Shown piece by piece: positions 11,262 to 63,830 of a stretch of DNA of 64,000 nucleotides (position 1 is the first letter of the stretch; the number at the start of each line of letters is the position of its first letter). The stretch comes from Ginglymostoma cirratum (Eukaryota), in assembly GCA_024137785.1 (NCBI GenBank), contig JAHRHZ010000263.1:13408438-13472437 (forward strand), written 5' to 3'. The notes under the pieces are model-generated. The model worked only from the letters and a program-made list of their open reading frames with translations, searched no databases and had not been told where the DNA came from. Position numbers and translations under genes: made by a program.

Positions 11262-11390
11262 ACAGAAAGATCACTGAAACTTTGACGATGTTTTTTCTAC
11301 AGAGATGCTGCCAGACCTGCTGAGTTTCTCCAGTAATTTCTGTATTTGTTTCAAACTCCCAGCATCCATAGTTCTTTGTTTTTTGTTTCC
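11262..11390 (+). mobile_element. Penelope-derived short element (family C), single arm
   Basis: cagagatgctgccagacctgctgagtttctccag...ccagcatcc, the same arm as at 24632-24816 and 62650-62841. Confidence 0.75.
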
Positions 11391-14402: not shown

Positions 14403-14579
14403 TATTACCTGCTTGAACTTGGGCACTAGTTTTTAAGGGTCCACGCATAAGGACTCCCAAAACCCTCTGTTTTGTGATAGAGATAATAGGAACCGCAGAT
14501 GCTGGAGAATCCGAGATAACAAGGTGTAGAGCTGGATGAACACAGCAGGCCAAGCAGCATCAGAGGAGCAGGAACTCTT

Positions 14580-14607
14580 GATGTTTCGGGCCTAGACCCT
14601 TCATCAG
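14580..14607 (-). ncRNA. Minimal type I hammerhead ribozyme-like motif
   Basis: Reverse complement reads CTGATGA-A-GGGTCTAGGCCC-GAAAC-ATC: hammerhead core boxes around a stem II hairpin. Confidence 0.7.
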
Positions 14608-14904
14608 AAATGGGGGAGGGGAAGAGGGTTCTGAAATTAATAGGGAGAGAGTGGGGTGCGGATAGAAGATGGATAGAGGAGAAGATAGGTGGAGAGGAGA
14701 CAGACAAGTCAAAGAGGCGGGGAATGGAGCCAGTAAAGGTGAGTGTAGGTGGGGGGGTAGGGAGGAGATAGGTCAGTCCAGGGAGGACGGACAGGTCAAG
14801 GGGGCAGGATGAGGTTAGTAGGTCGGAGATAGGGGTGTGGCTTGAGGTGGGAGGAGGGGATAGGCGAGAGGAAGTACAGGTTAGGGAGGTGGGGACAAGC
14901 TGGG

Positions 14905-15557
14905 CTAGCTTTGGGATGTGGTAGGGGGAGGGGAGATTTTGAAGCTTGTGAAATCCACATTGATACCATTGGGCTGCAGGGTTCCCAAGCTGAATATGAG
15001 TTGCTGTTCCTGCAACCTTTGGTTGGCATCGTTGTGGCACTGCAGGAGGCCCAGGATGGACATGTCATCTGAGGAGTGGGAGGGAGAGTTGAAATGGTTC
15101 ACGACTGGGAGGTGCAGTTGTTTATTGCGAACCGAGCGCAGGTGTTCTGCAAAGCGATCCCCAAGCCTCCGCTTGGTTTCCCTGATGTAGAGGAGGCCAC
15201 AACGGGTACAGTGGATGCAGTATACCACATTAGCAGATGTGCAGGTGAACATTTGCTTGATGTGGAAAGTCTTCTTGGGGCCTGTGATGGGGGTGAGGGA
15301 GGAGGTGTGGGGGCAGGTGTAGCACTTCCTGCGGTTGCAGGGAAATGTGCCAGGCGTGATGGGCTGGAGGGGAGTGTGGAGCGGACAAAGGAGTCACAGA
15401 GAGAGTGGTCCCTCCGGAAAGCAGACAAGGGTGGAGAGGGAAAGATGTCTTTGGTGGTGGGGTCTGATTGCAGATGGTGGAAGTGTCGGAGGATGATGCG
15501 TGGGATCCGGAGGTTGGTGGGGTGGTACGTGAGGATGAGGGGGATTCTTTTTTGGTT
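14905..15557 (-). pseudogene. Penelope-like ORF C-terminus: linker plus GIY-YIG endonuclease (frameshifted, 5'-truncated, no RT core)
   Basis: RIPLILTYHP...AFRRDHSL (ORF 15099..15584), then FTCTSANVVYCIHC..CGLLYIRETKRRLGDRFAEH...HFN...LGTLQPNGIN (ORF 14905..15252). Confidence 0.9.
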
Positions 15558-15985
15558 GTCCCATTCCTCAGATGACATGTCCATCCTGGGCCTCCTGCAG
15601 TGTCACAATGATGCCACCCGAAGGCTGCAGGAACAGCAACTCATATTCAGCCTGGGAACCCTGCAGCCCAATGGTATCAATGTGAATTTCACAAGCTTCA
15701 AAATCTCCCTAACCTGTTCTTCCTCTCACCTGTCCCCTCCTCCCACCTCAAGCCACACCCTCATCTCCTACCTACTAACCTCATCCCGCCCCCTTGACCT
15801 GTCTATCCTTCTTGGACTGACCTATCTCCTCCCTACCTCCCCACCTACACTCACCTTTACTGGCTCCATTCCCCGCCTCTTTGACTTGTCTGTCTCCTCT
15901 CCACCTATCTTCTCCTCTATCCACCTTCTATCTGCCTCCCCCTCTCTCCCTATTTATTTCAGAACCCTCTTCCCCTCCCCCATTT

Positions 15986-16013
15986 CTGATGAAGGGTCTA
16001 GGCCCGAAACATC
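15986..16013 (+). ncRNA. Minimal type I hammerhead ribozyme-like motif
   Basis: CTGATGA-A-GGGTCTAGGCCC-GAAAC-ATC. Confidence 0.7.
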
Positions 16014-16819
16014 AAGATTTCCTGCTCGTATGATGCTGCTTGGCCTGCTGTGTTCATCCAGCTCTACACCTTGTTATCTCTCTGTTCTGTAGCTTTTTGC
16101 AGTTTTTCTCCATTTTAATAAGATTCAGCTACTCCATTCTCCCTGCCATAGTGCACAATCCCACAATTCCCCACATTATGTTCCATCTGCTAAATTTTCT
16201 GCCCATTTGTTCAACCTACCTGTATACCTCTACACACTCTTTTTGCCAACCTCATCACTTGGCTTTCTGCCGATTTTCATATCATCTATAAAATTGGCAA
16301 TAGTACATTCCTCATCCAAGTTATATATTGTGAGCAATTGTGGCCCCAGCACTGAACCCTGTGGTAATCCACCAATTATTGCTGCCATCCCGAAAATGGT
16401 GCCTTATTCTATCTAGCCAATCGTCTATCTACACCAATATATACATCCAACACTATGAGCTCTTATCTTACAAAGTAGCTGAATGTGTGATCTCTGATTA
16501 AATGCCTGCTGAAAATCCAAATATATTATATCCATTGCTTCCCCTCTATCTATCTAGTTTATTACCTCCACAAAGAATTCTAGAAAATTGTCAAGCATGA
16601 TTTCTGTTTAAAAACTGAAAGAAATGCGGATTTCTTTTTATCTGCTCATCATGCATCTGTCTAGGTAGTGGAGGAGGGCTTCATCCCCAACTTTAAGCTG
16701 GCATTATCCATTGATCACACTGAAGGATTATAAAATGCTAATTAAGTGCCAGAGACCTGGTTGTGATTCAATGGTAATTAATGGAGCTTTAGCCTCATCC
16801 TGGCTAATGTTAACTAACT

Positions 16820-17146
16820 GGGGTGGCACTTGGTCTCAGTGGTTAACACTGCTGCCTCACAGTGCCTGGGACCCTGGTTCGATTCCACCCTTGGGTGGCA
16901 GTCCGTGTGGAGTTTTCACATTCTCCCAGTGTCTGGGTGCTCTGGTTTCCTACCACAGTCCAAAGATGTGCAGGTAAGGAGGATTTGTCATGCTAAATTG
17001 CCCATAGTGTCCAGGGATGAGCTGGCTATGTGAATTAGCCATGGGAAATGCACAGTTGCAGGGATGGGTAAGGGTGGGACTCTCCTCAAAGGGTCAGTAT
17101 GGATTCGATGGGCCAAATGACCTGCTTCCATTCTGTAGGGATTCTA
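16820..17146 (+). mobile_element. HE1-type tRNA-derived V-SINE
   Basis: A box (tggtctcagtgg), B box (ggttcgattcc), V-domain-like core, CR1-type tail ending gtagggattcta. Confidence 0.9.
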
Positions 17147-18164
17147 GTAACTCAGCACAGACAGGGAGACAAAGTCAAAACCTTCTGGTTTATGTTGCTT
17201 AACTACATGCTGATTTTACTAATTAAGTCTTTGAAAATTAAGTCTTATCATTGGATCTGATTCCCTGTGGTAACTAAGTTACAGTCACAGGATGACACTG
17301 CCTTGAGATAGGCACCCTAAATTGAGCAGAAGGTCATAATGCTGACACTGAGATCACAACAATCCAAGAATTTTCTTCTAAATTACGTTCTTCCTCCATG
17401 TAGGGGTCTTCAGAATTGATAAAATCAGCAAAGAAAATAAAGGAATAAATGATTGAATTGATGAAACTTATTACTTCTGGCTCAAGCCCATTCTAAGGGG
17501 CAAGCTAATAAAGGAACAGAGTAGTGCAATACTGAATGTGAGTTTTAACCAGGGTTCAGTTATACTCAGAATGTACTCCAGCTATCTTACATGCCTCATT
17601 AAAAACACATTGTGTGATGTTATTGGGCAAAAATGACTAAAAATATCTTCAAGTAAAATGATATTAACAAAAAGTTGATCTGGCAAGGATGATCTCAGAA
17701 TCACGCTTGTAGTGAAATATGTTGCCAGAAGAGGAATCGTTAGATTTGAGTGAATACTTTTGAAGGAAAATGATAAGTTTTCATAGAATCATAGAATCCA
17801 CAGGAATTTCCTTAGGAAATGGTTTCTTATCTATCAGAAACTATTAGATAATTACTAAAGCTTACCTAGATTCATTGTGAAGGCACTCTAGCACTTCAAT
17901 GACAAAAAATAAAATAAAATTGAGTTTATGTCAATTATAATGTGATAAACTTACCTTTATGGATATTTTTAATTGTCCTGTTCAGACATGACACACCTCT
18001 GGGCCACCGGCAGTGGAAACAGCACCTATAGTAGGCTGCAAGTTGTATTTATAGGTTTTTCAAGTCAACTTTTTCAGGATGTTATTATGCTGTTCTGGAG
18101 CAGGTGGAACTTTAGCCCAGATCTCCTGGCTTCAAGGTGGGGAGACTACTGTTGCCCAGAAGTC

Positions 18165-20338
18165 AAAGATTTTAATTGGAATTTTAATGGTACGAGACAA
18201 GAACTTTCAAAATTTGATTGGAATAGACTGTTCACTGGTAAAAGGAAGTCTGACAAGTGGGATGCATTCAAGAGTGTGATGACAAGAGTTCAGAGGCATT
18301 ATGTTCCTGTTAGAGTGAAGAGTAAGGCTGATACGATTAAGGAACAATGGATGAATGAAGATATTGAAGTTCTAGTCAAGAATAAACGAGAATCTTATTT
18401 TAGATATAGACAACTTGGTTCAGTTGAATCTCTTTAATCAATATAAAGAGTATAGGGCATTCTTAACAAAGAAATCAGGAAGGCAAAGAGGGGATATAAG
18501 ATAGTATTGGCCAATAAGGTTAAGGACAATCCAAGAGATTTAACAAGTACATTAAGACCAAAAGGGTAACTACAGAGAAGATAGGGCCTCTTAAAGATCA
18601 AGGAGGTCACCTTTGTGTTGTTCCCCAGGAGATGGGAGAGATACTAAATGAGTACTTCACATCAGTTTTTACTGTGGAGAAACAAATGGAGCCTAGAGAA
18701 TGCAAAGAAATAAATTTTGATGCTTTAAAAACAGTTCACATTACAGAAGAGTAAGTTCAAGAGGTCTTAGAGAACATAAAGGTGTATAAATCGAAGGGAC
18801 CTGGTCTAATGTATCCCAGAACATTGTGAGAAGTAAGGAAGGAAATTGTGACACTGTTTACAGAAATATTTGCACCATCTATAACTACAGGTGAGGTGCC
18901 TGATGACTGGAGGGTGGCTAATTTTGTACCCTTGTTTAAGAAAGGATGTAAGTAGAAACCGGGGAACAATAGACCTGTGAGTCTGACTTCTGTTGTGAGT
19001 GAATTGTTAGAGGTGATGATAAAAGATAGGATTTATGGACTTTTAGAGAGGCAAGAATTGATTAGTGATAGTCATCATGGTTTTGTGTGAGGAAAGTTGC
19101 ATCTCACAAGCTTGATTGAGTGTTTTGAGGAAGTTAACAAAAAGATTGATGGTGGCAGTGCAGTAGACGTTTTTTTTTGGATTTTAATAAAGCCTGTGAC
19201 AAAGTTCTGCATGACAGGCTAATTAGTAAAGTTAGGTCACATGCGATTCAGGGTGAGTTTACCAATTGGATACATCAATAACCAAACAGCAGGAGACAGA
19301 GAGTGATGGTGGAGGGTTGCTTTCTGGACTGAAGGCCTGTCACCAGTGGTGTTCCACAGGGATCAGCTCAAGGTCCTGTTTTGTCTGCAACTTATATAAA
19401 TTGGATGAGAATATCGAGGGCATGGTTAGTTAATTTGCAGATGACACCAAAATTGGTGTCATAGTAGACAGTGAAGAAGGTTTTCCAAGATTGCAAAGGG
19501 ATCTTGATCAAATGGGTCAATGGGCTGAAAAATGGCATATGGAGTTCAAGCTGGATAAATGTGAGGTATTGCATTTTGGTGCAACAAACAAGGGTAGGGC
19601 TTATATAATTAATGGTAGGGCCTTGGGTAGTATTGTAGAACAGATGGACCTAGGGGTACAGGTACATAATTCTTTAAAGTTTGCGTCACACAAAGACAGG
19701 ATGGTTAAAAAGGTGATTGGCATACTTGCCTTCATTGCACAGTCTTTTGAGTACAGAAATTGTGATGTTATGTTGAGGTTGTACAGGATATTGGCAAGGC
19801 CTCTTCTGGGAAACTGTGTCCAGTTCTGGTCGCCCAGTTATAGGAAGGATATTATTAAGCTGGAGAGGGTTCAGAGGAGATTTACCAGGATTTTGCAAGA
19901 TATGGAAAGTTTAAGTTATACACAAAGGCTGGAGAGGCTGGGACTTTCCTCATTAGAGCGTAGGAAATTGAGAGCTTTATAAGTTTATAAAATAATGAGC
20001 GATGTAGATAGAGATAATGGTAGTTGTCTTTTGCCTAAGATGGTGGATTTCAAGGCGAGGGGGTACATTTTTAAGGTGAGAGAGATTTTTAAAAAAAATG
20101 TGAGGCAATTTTTTTTTACACAGAGGGTGGTTCATGTGTGGAATGAACTTCCTGAGGAAGTGGTAAATGCATCGTACAATTACAATGTTTAAAAGACATG
20201 GATACATGAACAAGAATGGTTTGGAGGGAAACAGGCCAGGACCAACCAGGTGGGACTAGTTTGTATTGAGATTATGTTTGGCATGGACTGGTTGGACCAA
20301 AGGGTCTGTTTCCATGCTGTCGTACTCCATGACTCTAT
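18165..20338 (+). mobile_element. CR1 (HER1-type) LINE, 5'-truncated, decayed RT
   Basis: ORF 17973..18437 (DWNRLFTGK..WDAFKS), RT motifs GVPQGS and FADD near 19350-19445, ORF 19491..19982, tail ...actccatgactcta. Confidence 0.95.
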
Positions 20339-23059: not shown

Positions 23060-24380
23060 AATAGTCCAGCATATCTGTCGACCCTGAAAAGACCTTCTGA
23101 ATCCCATCTTGGACCTAGTATGAATATTAGGAGAGCTATTCCACAGGTAAGCCAAGTTACAGTCTAACATGGTGATACTAACCAAACTCACTTTATGGCA
23201 GTGTCCCAGCCATAGCCATCACAATCCTGTTCCACAGAGGGGGTTTTTCAGTGGTATACAGTCAGGAAGGAGTGGCCCTTGGAACCCTCAACATTGATTC
23301 TTGAGCTATGAAATCTAATGGTATGAGATACAAGCAGGGAGGACCTCCTGCTGATTACCGTCAACCACACTGTGTCAATTGATGAATCAGTATCCTCCTT
23401 TGATGGAGAATTAGAGAAAACACCAAAAGTGGCCAGGTCACTTTTATTTTGTTCATCCATGGGATGTGAGTGTTGCTGGATCTGCCAGCATTTATTGAAC
23501 TTCTGATCAGCTTCTCAATGACTATCCTTAAGGCTGGCTCAGTATCACTATTGGTAATATTGAGGAATTAAGAAGGTCATCCCTGTCAGACAAAGCCTAT
23601 AACTGGTGGTGAGAGAACCTACAAGAGGGAAAAATCCACTTGACTTAGTCAAGCCTAGGGGCAGCACAGTAACTCAGTGGTTTGCACTGTTGCCTCACAG
23701 AGCCAGGTTTGATTCCAGCCTCGGGTGACTCTGAGTGGAGTTTACATGTTCTCCCCATGTCTGCGTGGGTTTCCTCCAAGTGCTCTGGTTTCCTCCCCAC
23801 AGTCCAAAGAGGTACAGTTTAGGTTAATTGGTCATGCAAATTTGCCCATGGTGTCCAGGGTTGGGCAGGCTCAGTGGGTTAGCTATGGTAAACACAGGTT
23901 TACATGGATAGAAGTGGGCTGCCGTTCAGAGGGACAGTGCAGACTTGATGGGCCAAATGGCCTCTATCTATACTGTAGGGATTCTATGATTCTAGTTGTC
24001 AACAACCTCCCAATCACTGATCAATCTATTGAAGACAGCATTAGTTGGAATGACCATTGCCCTGTCCTTCTGGAGATTGAGTCTCACCTTCACATCTCAC
24101 CTTCACCACAACATTGTGTTGTGTAGCACTAAAAATGTACTAAGTGGAATAGATAATGAACAGACTTACTCTCACAAAGCTGGACAGTCATGAGGAGCTG
24201 TGGACCACCAACAGGGGCAGAATTACATTTAACTATGATGTGTAACCTTCCATTACTATATTTCTTGCACAATCATTACCATTAAAAGGGGACTAAACTT
24301 AATTCATGAAAAGTGCAGTAGAGCATGCTAAGAACAGCATCAGGCATAACTTAAAACAAGGTATCCACCTGGAGTCCAGC
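23060..24380 (+). mobile_element. CR1-like LINE family B, endonuclease region, decayed and interrupted by HE1
   Basis: Homologous in reverse to 49000-49900; endonuclease-like PTRGKNPLDLV and SWNDHCPVL segments. Confidence 0.65.
23658..23994 (+). mobile_element. HE1-type SINE
   Basis: Same head, core and tail as 51705-52028. Confidence 0.9.
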
Positions 24381-24631: not shown

Positions 24632-24816
24632 AACAAGCAAAAGAATTGCGGATGCTGGAAATATGAAACAGAAGCAGAAGTTGCTGGAAAATCTCAGCAG
24701 GTCTGGCAGCATCTGTGGACAGAAATGAGAGTTCACTGCACCTGAAATGTTAACTCTGATTTTCTCCACAGACACAACCAGACATGCTGAAATTTTCCAG
24801 CAATTTCTATTTTTGT
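24632..24816. mobile_element. Penelope-derived hairpin element (family C)
   Basis: Inverted arms (gttgctggaaaatctcagcaggtctgg / ccagacatgctgaaattttccagcaat); TSD ttggaattagaga (24619-24631) / ttggcattagaga (24817-24829). Confidence 0.8.
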
Positions 24817-28467: not shown

Positions 28468-28750
28468 GGGGTGGCATGGTGGCTAATGGTTAGCACTGCT
28501 GCCTCACAGCGCCAGGGACCTGGGTTTGATTCCAGCCTCGCGCGACTGTTTGTGTGGAGTTTGCACATTCTCCCCATGTCTGCGTGGGTTTCCTCCAGGT
28601 GCTCAGGTTTCTGCTAAGGTAAGTTGCCCGTAGTGTTCAGGGATGCCTTGATTGCGAGGATGGGCCTGGGTGGGATTCTCTGAGGGTTGGTGTGGACTTG
28701 TTGGGGCAAAAGGCCTGTTTCCACATTGTAGGGAATCTATGAAATTCTAT
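28468..28750 (+). mobile_element. HE1-type SINE with internal deletions
   Basis: Head ggtggcatggtggctaatggttagcactgctgcctcacagcgcc; tail ggcctgtttccacattgtagggaatcta. Confidence 0.9.
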
Positions 28751-30820: not shown

Positions 30821-31179
30821 TTAGAGCCAAGTTTCTCTCTCTTTCTGTATCATTTCTTCTTTAGCAGAAAGGCAAAAACAAGATTTTATTAGTTAGCTCT
30901 GCTACTTAGCACCTTCTATGGCTATTTTTATTCTTATTATGTAAAATGATTAATTTATTGCTGTGACATTGATTTCTTTTTGCTCAATAAGTTGTTCTTT
31001 TCTCCTCAAAAAAATAGTAATTATGTTTAATGTGGTGCTAAACCAGGTCTCAGGCAGTTTCAGCTGGGTTTCTTACTGAAAAGGAATAAAAGGCTCAGCA
31101 AGAAGTCTGAGTGTTTTTTGAAATGTTGGAAAAAGGCATTATATATCAAAGGGGATGTGTTGGATATACTCAATATACC

Positions 31180-31345
31180 TGGTGGCATCTGTACAGAGAA
31201 AAACAGAGCTCAGCTGCCTTTCATCAGAACTATTGAACATTGTGTACATAAAGTGTTCACTCAGTTTCTCTCACAGTTACTGCCTGGCCTACTAAGCATT
31301 TCAGTATTGCCTTCTAATATTTCAGATTTCCAGCATCAAAAGGAC
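31180..31345. mobile_element. Decayed Penelope-derived hairpin element (family C)
   Basis: ggcatctgtacagagaaaaacagag...ttcatcag on the left; tttctctcacag...ttcagatttccagcatc on the right. Confidence 0.55.
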
Positions 31346-31514
31346 TTTGTTCTATTGTCACATGCTCCATTCTGGGCATCTGTAGGCTCAGTTAATTTCA
31401 ACTTAACATGAGAAAATATTATCACTGACTGCAAAGTGCAGTATCTCCGTTAACAGAAGTCTTTTGGATTTGACCATCCAGATTTGCATAGAATTGGATA
31501 GCAATTTCCACAAA

Positions 31515-37127: not shown

Positions 37128-37620
37128 TCAAAGTTTATAAAATCATGAAGGGTATAGATAGGATTAATGGTAGGTATCTTTTGCCTAGGATGAGGGACTA
37201 GGAGGCACATTTTTAAGGTGAGCAGAAAGAGATTTAAAAAAGATGTGAGGGGCAATTTTTTGCACAAGAGGGTGGTATGCATGTGGAATGAACTTTCTGA
37301 GGAAGTGGTGGATGTGGACGCAATTACAAAAGTTAAAATATGTTTGGACAGGTACATGAATAGGAAAGAGACAAAAAAAATGCAGAGGCTGGAATCTAAG
37401 GTAGACAAACGGGAGGCTGGAAGAACATAGAAAGCCGGGAAGCATCTGGAGGAAAGGAGCAGTTAACATTTCAGATATAACCCTTCTTCAGGTCAGGAAA
37501 GGTTGGCGGGAAACAGGCCAGGAGCAGGCAGTAGGACTAGTTTACTTTGGGATTATGTTCAGCATGGACTGGTTGGACCGAAGGGTCTGTTTCTGTGCTG
37601 TATGATTGTAAGACTCTGTA
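37128..37620 (+). mobile_element. HER1-type CR1 3' end containing a Penelope-derived arm (37369-37494, minus)
   Basis: ORF 37218..37430 (RGNFLHKRVVCMWNEL); insert flanked by aggaaag (37362-37368 / 37495-37501). Confidence 0.85.
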
Positions 37621-40149: not shown

Positions 40150-40440
40150 TTTCATTTTTGTGGGATGTGGGCGTCGCTGGCTGGCCAGCATTTATTGCCC
40201 ATCCCTAGTTGCCCTTGAGAAGGTGGTGGTGAGCTACCTTCTTGAACTGGTGCATCCCACCTGCTTTGGGTTGACCCACAATGTCGTGAGGGAGGAAATT
40301 CCTGGATTTTGTCCCAACGACAGTGAAGGAATGCTGATATATTTCCAAGTCAGGATGGTGAGTAACTTGGAGGAGAACTTGAAGCTGGTGGCGTTCCCAT
40401 GTATCTGCTGCCTTTGTCCTCCTAGATGGGAGTTGTTGTG
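40150..40440 (-). mobile_element. Family B LINE 3' end
   Basis: ORF 40205..40651 ends FKKVAHHHLLKGN*, followed by gggatgggcaataaatgctggcc. Confidence 0.85.
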
Positions 40441-41276
40441 AGTTTCTCCATTTGGCATCTGTATTTATGTTCTGATAGTTCAGATGGTCGATTGAAGCCT
40501 TGATCACACACAGAACATGTGTACCAGCTTCTCTCCACTGTGAATCGGGCTTTTTTCTTTCCATGTTGTTTAGGTAACAATATGCTGGATGGCCCTGTAA
40601 GATCCTGATGTGATGTTTGGTTTGGAGTTTTGTGACTACAAATTCATTCATTCTAAACTCTTGTTGAGCCTGTGCAATGAGCTGCTAGCTGCGAAACAAA
40701 AGTTGGTGTGCTAACTTTCCTCAATTGTCTGTAATGAGACAGAGACACATCTTGCCTTGATTCCCACAGTCACACCTCCTGCAGTTGTGGTGTTAACAGC
40801 AAAACTGAAGACCAGGACCCTTGAGAAGGATTCATTAGAGGTCATAGAGCTGCCCAAATTGGAGGCAGAAGAACAAAGTTGACAATTATATACTTGGTTA
40901 ATGCAGCTGTGCTTCTGAAGTATCGAGTAGCTCAATTGGGCCGAGTTATTTGTGAAGGGGAAGTTAATTCTGGCAAAATGTGCAAATAATGAGCTGCAAA
41001 TGCATACAGACTGGGTTCTTGCCACTTGATGGAGAGAGAAATATCTTGGCATCCAAGGAAGGAGGACTTAATTGTGAAAGTTTATCTTTGACAGCAAAAA
41101 TCTGGCTTTTTGGATCTCTGCCTGATTAAATCATCATGCTCACCGTTCTTCTCAACAGCTGAAAGAGGGGTAAAGCATGCTTTCAACTGGCACAAATGCA
41201 ATTAATCCTTTCAATGGCAATAATGAAAAGAGTTTCCAAAAGTGTTTTGATCTAAAAACACCAGTCTTTGAATCCA

Positions 41277-41456
41277 AAGTGTGGAGCTGGAGGAACACAG
41301 GCAGCATCAAAGGAGCAGGAAAGTTGACATTTCTGAAGAAGGGTCCTGACCCGAAACGTTAGCTTTCCTGCTCCTCCGATGCTGCCTGGCCTGCTGTGTT
41401 CCTCCAGCTTCACACTGTGTTCTCTCAGACTCCAGCATCGGCAGTTCTGGCTATTT
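41277..41456. mobile_element. Penelope-derived hairpin element (family A variant)
   Basis: Perfect 15-bp TSD cagtctttgaatcca (41262-41276 / 41457-41471); core ctgaagaagggtcctgacccgaaacgtt at 41333-41360. Confidence 0.9.
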
Positions 41457-43431: not shown

Positions 43432-45690
43432 TGTTGTGTTGTTGCACAGATCTCAGAAATACCTTGCCTTTAAGATAGTCAGATAACATGATAACATGAT
43501 GATATAGTGTGAAAGATAGCGTAAATTGTTCTGTATGTTCAGTCGGTTAGTCAGCCAATCAACTATGTATGTAATGTAATCATAATCTAACTGGCATATA
43601 ACCTAGACTGTCTATGTAAGTCTGAGACATCAGACTAGTGTCATTGACATTGGCAATCACTCACTAACAAATATGATTGTCCACTTAGGAAATTCTGTGT
43701 CACTTGTCATGGGTTCTGTGGGTCATTGCATTACTGAGCATACATGGTCAGTCGTTAATAAATTTCCAGATATTTGGCTTAATATTATTCTGGCTTTCTG
43801 TGATACATGTTACTCAGGCTAAGATATATTAAACCACGAGCACATCATGGTACCAGATGATGGTGACAGCAAGTATGTACAAGAAACTGGAGACAGCAAA
43901 TTTGTACAAAGCCTAAAAGAAGCCTTCAAGTATGGCAGTTTTCCTAATAGTTGCCTAAGACCTGTTCAACTTCAGAGCTGAAGTTAATGACTAAGACTAA
44001 TATGTAACAATGAAGACTGAAGGTGATAACAGCACTGAAGCAAGAAAAATTTGTGAGTATTCATTCTCTTTTGAAAAAGGAGGGAATAACTTTTTTTTTT
44101 AAAAACGGGACCTTTAAAAGGTGCTGAAAGAACAGCTTCCACTTACCAAAGCACCAACATACTTTTTAATCTCTCAAGAATCTCTAACTGCTAGTTAATG
44201 TATAATATCCTCACTATTATGATCCCACCAAGCATACCATGTGGATGCATCCTAGAAAGCCCTGGGAGCATGTCTATGACAGGATGCTGAGCCTATTGGC
44301 TCTAAACTCCTTGTGAAACCTCAGGTAAATTATTGTGATATAAAAAAGGGGAACTCTTGGATTTTGGAACAGAAATGTTAGTCACAGACTCACTTGACAA
44401 GAATTTCATGGTTTGTGCTAACCAGAAACCATTAAAGTGATCTGTTCAAAACATCTCACAAGTGCATCTCCACACCTACGAAATCTACTTATCAAGATCA
44501 AAGGGTATGATATCGAAGAACAAAACAAACAAAGCTCACAAGTGATGATTTCTGATGCTCATGGCAGACTTCCAAATCCAACTAAGAACAAAGATGTCCT
44601 AGATTTTTGAGTGCATATTGTAATGGTAGTGTCCTGGGGAGTGTTGCCAAACAAAGAGACCTTGTGGTGCAAGTGCGTAGTTCCTTGCAAGTGGAGTTGC
44701 AGGTAGACAGAGTAGTGAAGAAGGTGTTTGGTACACTTGCCTTTATTGCTCAGTGCATTGAGTATAGGAGTTCAGATGTCACTTCGAGACCATTCTGTTC
44801 AATTCTGATCTCCCTGCGGTAGGAAAAATGTTGCTAAACTTGAAAGAGTTCAGAAAAGATTTACAAGGATGTTGCTAGGGTTGGAGGGTTTGAGCTATAG
44901 GCTGAATAGACTGGGGCTATTTTCCCTGGTGCATCAGAGGCTGAGGGGTGACATTATAGAGATATGTAAAATCATAAGGAACATGTATAGGGTGAATAGC
45001 TAAGGTCTTTTTCCTAGGGCAGGGAAATCCAAAACTAGAGGGCATACATTTAAGGTACAAGTGGAAAGATTTAAAGGGATCTAGGGGGCAACTTTTTCAT
45101 GCAGACTGTGGTGCATATATAGAATGAACTGCCAGACGAAGTGGTGGAGGCTGATACAATGACAATATTTAAAAGGCATCTGGATGGGTATATGAATAGG
45201 AAGGGTTTAGAGGGATATGGGCCAAATGCTGGAAAATGGGACTAGATTTATCTAGGATATCTAGTCGGCATGGACAAGTTGGACTGAAGAGTCTGTTTCT
45301 GCGTAGTGCATCCCTATGACTCTCTGTCTAAGTCCAAATTCAAAAAAAAGTTTGCACATCAATCTCATTCATTTTGGTCATAGGTCAGCAGAGCAAATCC
45401 AGCAAGTGACATGTGATGATGTCCAGTTACAACAGCTCAATATGATCATCAGCAGCCACTGACCTGAACACGTTCAATTTCCTGAGCAAGCGTCTTCATT
45501 CTAATTATTCAGACATGCACTAGGACTCTCTAGAAATGTAATTTTCAAAGGAAAGCAAGGAATTGTTCCACAAGTTCCAGTTCAAGATTTGAATGCAGAA
45601 AAAGACAAGAACTTGGCACTTGAATCTATCTATTGGCCAGGCAGCAGTGAGGACATCGATCAATGAATTAAATTGCATGAAACATATTGG
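43432..45690 (+). mobile_element. Internally deleted Ty3/Gypsy element: LTR, PBS, RT/RNase H and integrase zinc-finger remnants
   Basis: LTR 43432-43847 (tgttgtg...cacatca); PBS tggtaccag at 43848; YYDPTK..VDAS*KALGACL; KHLTSASPHLRNLLIKIKGYD; after a CR1 insert, LALESIYWPGSSEDI. Confidence 0.8.
44608..45325 (+). mobile_element. HER1-type CR1 3' fragment inserted in the Gypsy pol
   Basis: ORF 44607..44822 (QRDLVVQV..QVDRVVKKVFGTLAFI); tail ctatgactct. Confidence 0.9.
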
Positions 45691-51704: not shown

Positions 51705-52028
51705 GGGCAGCACGGTGGCTCAGTGGTTAGCACTGCTGCCTCACAGCACCAGGGACCTGGGTTCGATTGCAGCCTCGGGTGTCTGTCTGTGTGGAGTTTG
51801 CACTTTCTCCCCGTGTCTGTGTGGGTTTCCTCCGAGTGCTCCAGTTTCCCCCACAGTCCAAGGATGTGCAGGTTAGGTGGATTGGCCATGCTAAATTGCC
51901 TGTAGTGTTCAGGGAGGTGTAGGTTAGCTGGGTTGTTGGAGGGGGTGGGTCTGCGTGGGATGCTCTGAGGTTCGATGTGGACTTGTTGGGCCGAAGGGCC
52001 TGTTTCCACATTGCAGGGATTCTATGAT
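51705..52028 (+). mobile_element. HE1-type SINE, near full length
   Basis: ggcagcacggtggctcagtggttagc...gggttcgattgc...gggcctgtttccacattgcagggattctatga. Confidence 0.93.
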
Positions 52029-52170
52029 AACTTGTTAGAGCAGAGTTATAATATTCTGAAAAACTGTCTAGTCCTCAAAGTAGACATCTAATATAGAGTG
52101 CTGCCTCCTGATTATTGAACATTTGTGATTTTCCTTTTGTTTACAATGGGCACATGATTTGTCTTACAAG

Positions 52171-52325
52171 ATCAGAGAGAAACAGTTAATATTTTGAGTT
52201 AACATTCAGAACTCTGAAATGTTAGCTCTGATTCTCTGTGCACAGATGCTGCCAGGCCTCTTGGGTTTCTCTAGTATTCTCCCTGAGTTCAAATTTCCAG
52301 CGTCACAGTGTTTTACATTTATTAC
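52171..52325. mobile_element. Penelope-derived hairpin element (family C)
   Basis: Short left arm and full right arm; flanked by cttacaag (52163-52170 / 52326-52333). Confidence 0.7.
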
Positions 52326-53375: not shown

Positions 53376-53641
53376 GTGGCATGGGGGCTCAGTGGTTAGC
53401 ACTGCTGCTTCCTGGGTTCAATTCCACCCTCAAGCAACTGTCCGTGTGGAGTTTGTACATTCTCCCCATGTCTGTGCGGGTTTCCTTTGGGTGCTATGGT
53501 TTCCTCCCACTGTCCAAAGATGTGCAGGTTGGGTGGTTTAGCCACGTTAAACGCAGAGTTACAGAGGTGAGTCTGGGTGGAATGCTTCTTGGAGAGTTGG
53601 TATGGACTCAATGGCTTGCTTCCACACTGTAGGGATTCTAT
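53376..53641 (+). mobile_element. HE1-type SINE
   Basis: Head gctcagtggttagcactgctgc; tail cttccacactgtagggattcta. Confidence 0.88.
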
Positions 53642-56049: not shown

Positions 56050-58290
56050 GAGCATAGAATATAGAGCAGTACAGCACAGTACAGGCCCTTCGGCCCACGA
56101 TGTTGTGCCAAACTCTTACCCTAATCCTAAAGTCTATCTAACCTCCACCCCTACCTCATACTATCATCCATATGCCTATCTAATAGCTGCTTAAATGTCC
56201 CTAATGAGGCCGACTCCACTACCTTCTCCAGCAATGCATTCCACGCCCCGACCACTCTCTGAGTAAAGAACCTACCTCTGACGTGTCCCCTATATCTACC
56301 TCCCCTCACTTTAAAACTATGCCCCCTCATAATAGCTACCTCCACCCTAGGAAAAAGTCTCTGGCTGTCTACTCTATCTATACCTCTGATCATTTTGTAC
56401 ACTTCTATCAAGTCACCTCTCATCCTTTGTCATTCTAAAGAGAAAAGCCCTAGATCTCTCAAACTTTCCTCGTAAGACCTTCCCTCCATTCCAGGCAACA
56501 TCCTGGTAAATCTCCTCTGCACTTTTTCCAATGCTTCCACATCTTTCCTGTAATGAGACGATCAGAACTGGACACAACACTCCAGATGTGGCCAAACCAG
56601 GGATTTGTATAGCTGGAGCATAACTTCACGGTTCTTGAACTCAATCCCTCTATTAATGAAAGCTAACACAACATACGCCTTCTTAACAACTCTATCCCCC
56701 TGGGTGGCAGCTTTCAGGGAACTGTGGACATGAACCCCGAGATCCCTCTGCTCTTTTACACTGCCAAGAATCTTTCTGTTAACCCTGTATTCTGCTTTCA
56801 AGTTTGTCCTTCCATAATGAATCAACTCACACTTTTCAGGGTTAAAATCTATCTGCCACACTTCTCAGCCCAGCTCTGTATCCTATCAATGTGCCTTTGT
56901 AATCCAGAACAGCCCTCCGCACTGTCCACAACGTGACCCACCTTCGTATCGTCTGCAAATTTACTAATCCACCCTTCCACTCCTTCATCCAAATCACTTA
57001 CAAAAATCACAAATAGAAGAGGACCCAGAACAGATCCTTGTGGTACACCACTCGTAACTGAGCACCATGTTGAATATTTTCCATTCACTACACTCTTTGT
57101 CTTCTGATGGTCAGCCAATTCTGAATCCAATCTGTCACATTTCCCCCTATCCCATGCCTCCTTACTTTCTGCATGAGCCTACCATGGGGAACCTTATCAA
57201 ACAGCTTACTTAAATCCATGTATACCACATCCACTGCTCCACCTTCATCCACATGTTTGGTCACCCCTTCAAAGAATTCAATAAGGTTTGTGAGGCATGA
57301 TCTACCCCTCACAAATCCATGCTGACTATCACGAATTAAACTGTGCCTTTCCAAGTGATCATAAATCCTATCTCTCAGAGCCCTTTCCAATAATCTGAAG
57401 TAAGACTAACTGGTCTGTAATTTCCGGGGTTATCCCTATTCCCTTTTTTGAACAAGGGAATGACATTTGCCTCTCTCCAAACTTCCGGCACTGTACCCGT
57501 GGACAGTGAGGACAAAAAGATCATTGCCAAAGGGCCTGCGATCTCTTCCCTCGCTTCCCATAGAATCCTTGGATAAATCCCATCAGGCCCGGGGGACTTA
57601 TCTATCTTCAAGTTCCTCAAAATTCCTTGAACATCTTCCTTACTAACATTGACCTCCTCTAGCCTACCAGCCTGTTTCACACTGTCCTCCTCTACAACTA
57701 GGTCCCTCTCAGTTGTGAATACCGAAGAAAAGTATTCAATAAGGACCTCTCCTATCTCTTTAGGCTCCGTGCACAAATTCCCTTTACAATCCTTGATCGG
57801 CCGTACCCTTTCTCTGGTCGTTCTCTTATTCCTCACGTAAGTGTAAAAAGCCTTGGAGTTTTCCTTGATCCTATCCGCCAAGGTTTTCTCATGCATCCTT
57901 ACAGCTCTCCTAAGCCCTTCCTTCAGCTCCTTCCCGGATAACTTGTATCCATCTAGAGTCTTTTCCGTTCCTTGTCTCCTAAACCTCATATAAGCATCCT
58001 TCTTCCTCTTAACCAGTCGTTCGACCTCTCTTGAGAACCAAGGCTTCCTCACTCGACCACATCTTCCCTGCCTGCTAGGGACAAACATATCGAGCACACG
58101 CAGTATGCGTTCCTTAAACAATCTCCACATTTCAATAGTGCTCTTCCCTGACAGCATCTGTTCCCATTTTATGTTACCCAGTTCTTGCCTAACAGAATTG
58201 TAATTACCCTTCCCCCAATTATAAACCTTACCCTGATGTATGTACCCATCCTTTTCCATGACTATTGTAAAAGTAACAGAGTTATGATCT
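56050..58290 (-). mobile_element. Young CR1 LINE, 5'-truncated; ORF2 broken by a few frameshifts
   Basis: ORFs 57375..58310 (KSPGPDGIYPR..NYRPVSLTS), 57088..57390 (QHGFVRGRSCLTNL), 56849..57130 ([14 protein letters not shown]), 56562..56861 and 56151..56423. Confidence 0.97.
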
Positions 58291-58367
58291 CTACAAATTA
58301 TTGCTGACAATTACTTTAGTAAAGAGTGGTAAAATTATTAGCTAAAATGCACACATATCATTGTTGG

Positions 58368-58445: not shown

Positions 58446-58778
58446 GGCAGATGATCCTGATCCTAGTGCCGCATCTCAGACCACAGCTATTTCTGGGAGG
58501 TGGAATTTGTCCGTGGTCTTGAGATTGTTGACATTCCTTTCTGCAGTTCCTTTTCTGCAGTTCCTTTTGTGGGCTGGTATTTTCGAAAAATTGTGTCCCT
58601 TCATACAGGAGCTTCCTCCAACTCAATTTATTCAAATATGGTTAGTTAAAAGTTTCATAAAATTTTTACTTCTTCAGATTTATTGTGATATTACTTAATA
58701 GCTGATAAATTCCTTAGATTTTTTATTCTGTATCCTAAACTACTCTTGCCTGAAAATATGTTCTTTCCACAGAAATAA

Positions 58779-59430
58779 AGAGATAACAAGGTGTAGAGCT
58801 GGATGAACACAGCAGGCCTAGCAGCATCAGAGGAGCAGGAAAGCTGACGTTTCGGGCCTAGACCCTTCTTCNNNNNNNNNNNNNNNNNNNNNNNNNNNNN
58901 NNNNNNNNNNNNNNNNNNNNNNNNNNNNNNNNNNNNNNNNNNNNNNNNNNNNNNNNNNNNNNNNNNNNNNNNNNNNNNNNNNNNNNNNNNNNNNNNNNNN
59001 NNNNNNNNNNNNNNNNNNNNNNNNNNNNNNNNNNNNNNNNNNNNNNNNNNNNNNNNNNNNNNNNNNNNNNNNNNNNNNNNNNNNNNNNNNNNNNNNNNNN
59101 NNNNNNNNNNNNNNNNNNNNNNNNNNNNNNNNNNNNNNNNNNNNNNNNNNNNNNNNNNNNNNNNNNNNNNNNNNNNNNNNNNNNNNNNNNNNNNNNNNNN
59201 NNNNNNNNNNNNNNNNNNNNNNNNNNNNNNNNNNNNNNNNNNNNNNNNNNNNNNNNNNNNNNNNNNNNNNNGACCCTTCTTCAGATGCTTCTTCAGATTT
59301 TCTGAAGAAGGGTCTAGGCCCAAAACATCAGGTTTTCCTGCTCCTCTGATGTTGCTAGGCCTGCTGTGTTCATCCAGCTCCACACCTTGTTATCTCAGAT
59401 TCTCCAGCATCAGCAGTTCCTACTATCTCT
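58779..59430. mobile_element. Penelope-derived hairpin element (family A) spanning the assembly gap
   Basis: Inverted arms on both sides of the Ns; candidate TSD tctttccacagaa / tcttttcacagaa. Confidence 0.85.
58872..59271. other. Assembly gap (400 N)
   Basis: Run of N. Confidence 1.
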
Positions 59431-60190: not shown

Positions 60191-61099
60191 ATCTCCTGGA
60201 TTTTTTATTGTATGTCCTAATCTGCTCTTCCATTATCTTATCTCACTTATTTTGCTCAAATTTGGCAAGGAATTGACTTCCAAGCTATTGTGAGGTCAGA
60301 AATTCAAGACAAAGGGCTTTTCTGAATGTCCCCAATTTCTAGTAGCTAGGTGCACTTAACTGTTTTACTTCCAGGTTTCTGATTGACAGGTTGGAATCCT
60401 TTCCAGCACGGTCATAGCCTTCAAGAGTATGTAGGTGTATTGCAGAAATGGGAGTGATTAGGTGTGCGTGGTTGCTGTGGGGCTGCAGTGATCCCATCTG
60501 AGATAGGATCATTATCAATGGTGCATTTTACATCCCTTTTCTTTGACGTAAATGGACTGATCACACACAAGGATTGGTGAAACCATAATGTGGGTTCTTC
60601 ACTCGAAGATAAGGCTCTGCACAGATAAGTTTCACTAGACGCTAAGTCTGGTACATTCAATTTCTATCATTTCTTCAACTGTCTCACAAGTCATGGAACT
60701 AAAGCAACAGATCCTCTAAAGGAAGGTACAAACAAAGAGTGATTTTAAGATGCATTCTCTAAAAAGTGTATGTCATCATTTCACAATGGTAGGATTGCAG
60801 ATCACAAGGTGGAAGTCTAGTGGAACTCAGAGAGGGGGGTGATCATGATGGTGGACCGGCAGTCTAAGAGTGGTTAATGTTTTGCTGTGCATTCTAGGTT
60901 TAGTATGCTACTTACGTCCATGGCCTTTTTATGTAAACAGTCCATAGATACACCTCGTTCTTTATATCCATTCTCATTACGTGGGATAATGGGACCCTTT
61001 CCTAATCACCCTACCTTCTCATATGACTCTGCCATCATTTCTCTATATCTGCCCTTTATACTTGATGTCTATATTTCTTTGATGTCTATATTTTTATTT

Positions 61100-61233
61100 T
61101 CATTTTCTGATGAAGGGTTTAGGCCCGAAACGTCAAGTTTTCCTGCTCCTATGATGCTGCTTGACCTGCTGTGTTCATCCAGCCCCATGCTTGTTATCTC
61201 GGATTCTCCAGCATCTGCAGTACCTTTTATCTC
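61100..61233 (+). mobile_element. Penelope-derived single arm (family A) with hammerhead core at 61107-61134
   Basis: ctgatgaagggtttaggcccgaaacgtc; 16-bp direct repeat tgtctatatttctttg at 61066-61081 and 61234-61249. Confidence 0.88.
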
Positions 61234-62649: not shown

Positions 62650-62841
62650 TGAAATAAAAGCACAAAGTGCTGGAGAAACTCAGCAGATTTGGTAACACCT
62701 GCGGAGACAGAAACAGAGTTAACATTGAGACAAGACTGGACTTGAGATCTTAATTGCGTTTCTCTCTGCACAGAAGCTGCCAGACCTGTGTTTCTCCAGC
62801 ACTTTCTGATTCTTTTTTCCAGCATCTGCAGCATTTTGCTT
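62650..62841. mobile_element. Penelope-derived hairpin element (family C)
   Basis: Inverted arms; perfect 13-bp TSD ttgtcaatgacag (62637-62649 / 62842-62854). Confidence 0.85.
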
Positions 62842-63661: not shown

Positions 63662-63830
63662 AGGGGAACAGTAAATTGTCCTGTGGTGTCCAGGGGTGTG
63701 CAGGCTAGGTGGATCAGCCATGGGAAATGCAGGGTTATGGGATAGGATAGGAGAGTGGGTCTTTGGAGGGTCAGTGCAAACTTGTTGGGTTGAATTGCTT
63801 CTATCTGTAGCGGAAGGCTTCTATGATTCA
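63662..63830 (+). mobile_element. HE1-type SINE, 3' half
   Basis: taaattgtcctgtggtgtccagggg..caggctaggtggatcagccatgggaaatgc...ttctatgatt. Confidence 0.75.

Follow-up and report, generated by a model that had tools for sequence, protein, structure and literature searches.

Decayed and probably silent minimal hammerhead motifs on both strands of inverted Penelope-like insertions in a shark genome

The occurrence of hammerhead motifs on opposite strands of Penelope-like elements, or PLEs, has stood in print since 2014, when Cervera and De la Pena (PMC4209133) described dual motifs lying 100-700 bp apart on opposite strands in Schistosoma, and a 5'-truncated PLE of Cotesia bracovirus whose opposite strand bears a second motif; sharks are absent from the entries of supplement file 2 of that study. 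The role of PLE hammerheads is described as still open by Craig et al. (2021, PMC8557442), who give a CX2-5CxxC linker together with a GIY-YIG endonuclease carrying CCHH as the mark of Neptune/Nematis-type PLEs, and the vertebrate PLEs surveyed in bioRxiv 2026.07.22.740005 belong to Neptune or Poseidon. Inverted 5'-truncated copies and tails are presented as standard PLE features (PMC8557442; Arkhipova et al. 2013, PMC3846280). For the Anolis Poseidon element PAc, Frangieh et al. (2024, PMC11167929) report two internal reverse transcriptase (RT) start sites that bound the tail and a protein that cuts and extends both strands; in its in vitro reaction, the one reconstituted for a PLE, uncleaved RNA is the main template and ribozyme mutants insert equally. 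Type I hammerheads are also described in non-LTR retrozymes, short non-coding PLE-derived units in head-to-tail tandem arrays that enable dimer cleavage in cis (PMC7229834; bioRxiv 2026.07.22.740005), and the latter source reports hammerhead retrozymes in one chondrichthyan. Subscription papers and Repbase aside, we found no paper on the shark PLE family described here or on the pile-up of its 5' ends.

The sequence analysed is a 64,000-nucleotide stretch of the Ginglymostoma cirratum genome, hereafter the window. The motif CTGANGA-A-stem II (4 bp)-GAAA-C-R-T-Y is present at 14580-14607 (-), 15986-16013 (+), 41333-41360 (+) and 61107-61134 (+), exactly where, and on the strands on which, a sequence-only reading had placed four full copies. 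The first two fall within 14479-16080, which is one 5'-truncated, head-to-head inverted Penelope-like insertion and hence has a motif on each strand. Its left arm (14479-15559, -) is a 5'-truncated element that contains, in order, the end of the RT thumb, a Zn-finger linker, a GIY-YIG endonuclease, a pyrimidine-rich 3' region, the hammerhead and a 34-nt tail (14479-14512, -) that the arm alignment places in this arm only. The right arm (15559-16080, +) repeats the 3' part in inverted orientation; it is shorter, has a deletion of 47 nt, lacks the tail and differs from the left by 29 substitutions over 522 aligned columns; the 3' ends of both arms face outward. The left core (14580-14607, -) has ACAT, the palindrome being lost, with the triplet AUC and a stem I of 3 bp, and the right core (15986-16013, +) likewise has ACAT and AUC. 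Probable target-site duplications (TSDs) at 14465-14475 and 16080-16090 (both +) match at 10/11 positions, a score (8) that was equalled by 2.3% of 396 random pairs.

Two further properties of this insertion concern its RNA. If transcribed, 14513-15081 and 15559-16080 would form a duplex of ~520 bp, which is likely to be a substrate of ADAR or of small-RNA pathways rather than of self-cleavage. Some 27 nt upstream of its core, each arm has a pyrimidine tract that ends in TTTCAG (15953-15959, +, and 14634-14640, -) and resembles a splice acceptor; in Penelope of D. virilis the end of an intron is reported to coincide with helix I (PMC4209133).

Judged by its coding remnant, the host element is an EN+ PLE of the Neptune/Nematis type. 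The degenerate ORF end of the left arm (14905-15557, -), with a frameshift between 15381 and 15339, encodes a C-terminal GIY-YIG endonuclease with CCHH and a C-X4-C-X2-C linker, in which VVY..YIR stands in place of the YIG of its relatives (alignment A1), and its Pfam GIY-YIG match (E 0.026) lies below the cut-off. By tblastn the ORF aligns with Rhincodon protein P0121 at 88% and 93%, and among named relatives the closest by protein is Rhincodon typus (90%), ahead of Stegostoma tigrinum (83%) and then rays, an order that makes the host very probably a carpet shark. The RT is missing from the truncated window copy and is carried by relatives (YIDD in P0121, RVT_1 in P0132). The hammerhead follows the endonuclease ORF by ~300 nt and is itself followed by the tail. 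Like the Neptune/Nematis EN+ PLEs of Craig et al. and Arkhipova et al., as far as those papers describe them, the element thus combines GIY-YIG with CCHH and a CX2-5CxxC-type linker with 5' truncation, an inverted 5'-truncated copy, a tail of 30-40 nt at one end and a TSD. Protein searches with the reading frame of the hammerhead region returned no homologues, or unrelated repeats only. One of 145 proteins, from Stegostoma, reads through the motif as LMKGLRPKRQ, which is consistent with an intact core.

The family motif is very probably a genuine PLE minimal type I hammerhead, as sequence comparison indicates. Its closest counterpart in the published PLE set (PMC4209133) is the Neptune motif of Acropora digitifera, with which it has in common a U-rich leader, CUGANGA plus one extra nucleotide, G10.1-C11.1, a 4-bp stem II, GAAA-C-G-U-C without loop III, a 3-bp stem I and a position after the endonuclease ORF. 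Against that set as described, few stems I are as weak as that of the shark (UUU/AAG), and the two copies of the long insertion are decayed. The CUGANGA box with its extra nucleotide is found in 6/6 window cores in alignment A2, and stem II (GGGU/RCCC, 4 bp, closed by G10.1-C11.1) is followed by GAAA in four of the five young cores, that at 59302 being without G12; stem I comprises 2-3 bp including G-U. A descriptor with a 4-bp stem II matched six times in the window compared with 0.35 +/- 0.55 times (maximum 2) in 300 dinucleotide shuffles, and the exact motif of the sequence-only reading four times compared with 0.003, these matches being copies of one repeat family and not independent events. 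The loose pattern CTGANGA..GAAA barely exceeds chance (12 versus 6.6 +/- 2.6). One descriptor match, at 58649-58677, is AT-rich, has no stem I and is probably due to chance.

Relatives outside the window bear on the same question. An exact-pattern scan of prokaryotic genome contigs yielded five loci, two of which lie in long reading frames, have 0-1 Watson-Crick pairs in stem I and were discarded as chance before covariation was counted; the other three have 4-5 Watson-Crick stem I pairs, although the pattern did not require stem I. At one of these (L004; GenBank contig CBDDTI010000588, 601-1228), which is probably animal DNA contaminating a GTDB genome MAG, the core lies ~100 nt past a related PLE endonuclease (E 1e-48) and its 4-bp Watson-Crick stem I differs from that of the shark. 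The others (L002:601-627 and L005:601-626) are minimal hammerheads with perfect stem I in prokaryotic MAG contigs. Over six window cores and the three outside loci, hand-chosen rows that make the result supportive only, 88.7% of cells pair and all four stem I pairs show two-sided changes, a score that 0/500 shuffles reached.

A protein-binding or terminal element sequence that merely resembles a ribozyme would account for the very weak stem I of the shark family and for a stem II that covaries hardly at all within the window. It would also account for the outcome of the covariance-model check that the sequence-only reading proposed: among the 8 and 4 matches to Rfam models at E up to 10 there was no hammerhead family. 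We nevertheless consider such a look-alike very unlikely, given that every published PLE consensus feature is matched, and the Acropora motif closely so, that the L004 core beside a PLE endonuclease has a different 4-bp Watson-Crick stem I for which the pattern did not ask, and that two-sided changes affect 4/4 stem I pairs in the chosen rows. The identification as a Penelope-associated minimal type I hammerhead of the dimer-dependent kind thus holds, since the motif fits the published consensus and is shared by an independent relative with compensatory stem I changes. Matches to miRNA families at 41.3 kb were dismissed, as they merely reflect the fold-back.

Conservation beyond the level of the flank, on which the sequence-only reading had also made the identification depend, was found in part. 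Among seven young arms, core and stem II together differ at 2/127 sites compared with 40/590 downstream (p=0.02), whereas the core alone differs at 1/71 (p=0.11); the CpG of stem III differs at 3/14. The better preservation of core and stem II fits selection in the source elements, and some later constraint may have contributed.

The individual cores differ in their state. ACGT, which the sequence-only reading had taken as the palindromic stem III throughout, is retained at 41333, 61107, 58846 (-) and in the + arm at 17-39, whereas the tetramer at 14580, 15986 and 59302 is ACAT (GAAA-CATC). The palindromic 15.2/16.2 pair is kept in four of seven aligned young arms and hence characterises the family, and it is lost from both cores of the long insertion. 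These two cores keep the catalytic boxes CUGAUGA and GAAA and U16.1 intact. The cleavage triplets of the young cores (AUC at 14580, 15986 and 59302, GUU at 41333 and GUC at 61107) all follow NUH, the rule for permitted hammerhead cleavage triplets, to which AUC conforms. The sole core that is both intact and unmasked is that at 61107, with ACGT, GUC and a weak 3-bp stem I. The change from ACGT to ACAT reads as CpG decay at G16.2, as does the loss of G12 at 59302. The decay postdates insertion, because the sister arms at 59 kb differ at both core CpGs; between the long arms CpG state differs at 8/10 surviving CpGs, and ACAT, which is common to both, may derive from the template. In the young family, stem-loop II (15994-16005) has a palindromic CUAG loop that could support a 12-bp duplex between two molecules; this duplex dominates the predicted dimer, and the copy at 41 kb is without the CUAG loop.

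In profile searches the family amounts to 11 insertions in the window, occupying ~3.2 kb of 64 kb, plus one weak match near 42.6 kb. No full-length copy is present in the window, and most insertions are mirror pairs of 130-200 nt centred on the hammerhead, a respect in which they are unlike the Neptune/Nematis EN+ PLEs of the accounts cited above. At the window edge, a short head-to-head pair (1-97) has a - arm at 19-1 and a + arm from 17 without CUGA, with a junction overlap of 3 nt; 1-39, formerly listed as decayed or partial, is the fold-back junction of this pair, truncated by the edge. A short hairpin insertion at 41275-41456 consists of a tail-less - arm (41333-41275) and a tailed + arm (41328-41456) within a 15/15 TSD at 41262 and 41457; its core (41333-41360) has ACGT and GUU, and the GAAA/GUU half pairs with the opposite arm.

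Another short hairpin insertion (58780-59430, TSD 13/14) is divided by an N gap (58872-59271). Its - arm is tail-less, with GAAACGTC intact, and continues beyond the gap that follows, and the + arm (59299-59430) is tailed, with CpG decay at two sites of its core (59302-59329; loss of G12, ACAT). Both of these cores had been called decayed or partial, which is correct for 59302; that at 58846-58871 is not decayed and is interrupted by the gap. The 11 nt flanking the gap on either side overlap, so the hairpin may have given rise to the gap as an assembly artefact; at the junction (59272-59300) 10 nt of the arm's 5' end recur together with 2-3 additional bases, as if primed twice. A single short arm with tail (61104-61233, +) contains the core at 61107-61134 and has a 16/16 TSD at 61066 and 61234, with 22 nt of filler (61082-61103) between the left TSD and the arm that partly repeat the target site.

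An older core, the fifth, and five further decayed insertions had escaped the sequence-only reading. This core (37465-37491, -; ATGT, no stem I) belongs to an older-subfamily copy at 37372-37491 (-) with a TSD of 7 nt. Three of the remainder are older head-to-head pairs, at 24632-24812 (centred on the hammerhead's 3' half, left arm tailed, TSD 15/17), 62650-62841 (right arm tailed, TSD 13/13) and, more decayed, 31150-31350 (- arm starting near CUGAUGA, right arm tailed, TSD search negative). An older decayed copy with the remnant of an inverted arm lies at 52172-52312, with a doubtful TSD of 8 nt, and an older decayed single arm at 11262-11385 (+), where no TSD was found. Leaving aside the long pair, of nine insertions tested at both ends five (at 41, 59, 61, 62 and 24 kb) have TSD scores of 11 or higher, compared with 0/396 random pairs; at the other four the search gave none at 31 and 11 kb and only 7 nt at 37 kb and 8 nt at 52 kb. 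The tail is confined to one arm in all six readable pairs (14, 41, 59, 24, 31 and 62 kb). Descent of the hairpins from one master hairpin element was rejected, as the junctions differ from pair to pair.

Given this anatomy, the copies in the window would, on the modelled folds, probably not cut, and the two cores of the long insertion are very probably silent, presumably also in vivo. Because ACAT is not palindromic the dimer helix is broken, only two of four intermolecular stem III pairs being allowed. The active-dimer fold is predicted at +6.2 kcal/mol for these cores; 61107 has -3.5, and the three outside relatives range from -11 to -20, by nearest-neighbour energies that omit the tertiary contacts of the core. 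The core is also masked in either direction, because a transcript crossing a head-to-head pair yields the antisense arm first: when the complete 1681-nt sequence is folded, 15986-16013 pairs with 14607-14580 and the probability of stem II is 0 on both strands. In the fold at 41.3 kb the opposite arm pairs GAAA and C3, and the fold-back was for this reason rejected as a source of a better stem I. Each transcript moreover contains one sense core per insertion and so no partner inside the same insertion. As PLE-derived units that are short, non-coding and equipped with type I hammerheads, the copies resemble retrozymes (PMC7229834; bioRxiv 2026.07.22.740005); unlike the head-to-tail arrays reported there, all copies in the window are inverted pairs or single, and their head-to-head arrangement masks the core. 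These are predictions of equilibrium folding, and helicases, ADAR editing, splicing or an internal transcript start could free a core; a transcript initiated between the arms would bear a sense core without the antisense arm. Nor is ACAU proven dead, because in the published alignment one representative, Latimeria 3, has C-A at 15.2/16.2 (PMC4209133).

The sequence-only reading had suggested that a transcript in either direction would contain a self-cleavage site, and that such sites could cut host pre-mRNA. That the inserted copies are live bidirectional sites cutting host or read-through transcripts is, in our judgement, highly improbable. The intact CUGAUGA, GAAA and U16.1 of both long-insertion cores and their permitted AUC would allow it, 61107 is fully intact, and trans partners could exist in a family as dense as this one. 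Against it stand the lost palindrome and the antisense masking in both directions, a stem I of merely 2-3 bp with G-U, and reports that the minimal hammerhead monomer tested was inactive and dimers weak (PMC4209133), that cleavage failed in 8/9 retrozyme dimers from Xenopus (bioRxiv 2026.07.22.740005) and that RNA-seq reads are absent at the PAc cleavage site (PMC11167929). No host exon was found in a scan that covered part of the frames, and 61107 alone is both intact and unmasked. Pfam yielded no credible host domain in either 150/164 stop-free frames of at least 72 aa or 150/267 unmasked ones of 45-71 aa. Weak matches to TRADD_N and Med25 were unsupported by a PDB sequence search; the former reads like LINE debris, or so we assume.

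The ends of the insertions bear on a further suggestion, that cleavage defines the ends of the retrotransposition template. The two sides of the cleavage site are +27 and +28; of nine young arms none ends at the former or has its start at the latter, so that the termini of these inserts were not set by cleavage. The 3' ends lie ~60-100 nt downstream of it; relative to C3 the clean ones are at +94 (two tail-less arms, exact) and at ~+122 to +128 (tailed arms). Two tail-bounding RT start sites downstream of the hammerhead are likewise described for PAc, and uncleaved RNA as template, measured for PAc, may apply to the shark family also; PAc is of another clade and is described as without the Zn-finger linker (PMC11167929).

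The anatomy, TSDs, tail asymmetry, sequence defects and predicted masking lead us to favour strongly the explanation that these are decayed, antisense-masked PLE hammerheads and that paired insertion places the motif on both strands as a geometric by-product, the mirror-image pairing itself being known, and probably without harm. We propose that the terminal repeat (pLTR) of a cartilaginous-fish PLE contains a minimal type I hammerhead, which in the active source element would, by analogy with other PLEs, probably cleave weakly and as a dimer through the ACGU palindrome, perhaps assisted by the element's protein. Insertions would be copied from RNA uncut at the cleavage site, with starts at two sites that lie ~+94 and ~+128 relative to C3. 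After a staggered cut, one cDNA may be primed by each strand, or the first cDNA may fold back, and head-to-head joining of the products would leave an inverted pair within one TSD with the tail on a single arm. We favour priming on both strands at the two start sites, with joining via 1-6 nt of microhomology, over the alternative of self-priming, which has been proposed for rotifer PLEs (PMC3846280). After insertion the copies would decay neutrally, with CpG loss at G16.2 and G12, while the antisense arm masks each core.

The 5' ends show a different pattern. Relative to C3 those of the young arms lie at -2, +5, -5, +20, -1, -3 and -3, and those of the long arms at -474 and -953, so that the start falls 1-5 nt upstream of CUGANGA in five of these nine, and four of five insertions have such an arm. 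Under a geometric truncation null the cluster has P below 5e-4 after allowing for 200 windows; this null is crude, and the nine arms come from one window, are paired and perhaps derive from few source genes. Older pairs are likewise centred on the hammerhead. The clustered ends are at 19, 41328, 59285, 59299 and 61104, with an older one at 31229. G-quadruplex-like tracts were rejected as the cause of the stop, the nearest lying at ~-276.

The cluster would be expected if RT started just downstream and ran off at the UUU before CUGA to give a strong-stop-like cDNA, with cleavage at GUC forming the RNA 3' end, the core serving as a terminal repeat for strand transfer and the short hairpins being failed transfers. 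The position of the ends just before CUGANGA in four of five insertions, the low P under geometric truncation and the centring of the older pairs all speak for this possibility. We regard it as unlikely, in view of the sample of paired arms and the crude null just mentioned, and because equal ends would result from an RT pause at the U-tract before the C-tract or from junctions favoured by local GAAA/TTTC complementarity; in the PAc system, moreover, the main template is reported to be uncleaved RNA and the ribozyme dispensable in vitro (PMC11167929). The fuller version, in which the hammerhead is an RNA terminal repeat whose 5' edge is the first-strand cDNA stop and whose cleavage site is the RNA 3' end, serving a retrovirus-like strand transfer, and in which the ACGU palindrome may pair two template RNAs per particle, one per target strand, is more doubtful again. 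If this is true, aborted strong-stop products would be preserved as a fossil record in the abundant short mirror pairs, and PLE hammerheads would gain a first concrete role.

For the favoured explanation, a geometric by-product of paired insertion, the window adds a shark example of decayed minimal hammerheads in inverted Penelope insertions, and a caution that motif scans count masked, CpG-decayed copies as ribozymes. With 5' ends at the ribozyme edge, 3' ends at two fixed sites and ~11 insertions per 64 kb, such a density of junctions means that a shark genome could test models of PLE integration with very many natural junctions.

The window contains other repeats. A second abundant family, whose members join a tRNA-like head to a LINE-like tail (16840-17150, 23700-23990, 28487-28745, 51724-52030, 53379-53640 and 63670-63830), is probably a shark SINE, perhaps HE1; ARAGORN found no tRNA gene in the window. 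A lone C2H2 zinc-finger-like stretch (40425-40643, -; Pfam E 2e-4, below the cut-off) lies amid repeat-like sequence. LINE fragments, presumably CR1-like, occur at 56852-58310, 19434-19979 and 44586-44819, with RVT_1 matches at E 1e-10 and 4e-12 at 56.9-57.4 kb and a weak one at 19.4 kb.
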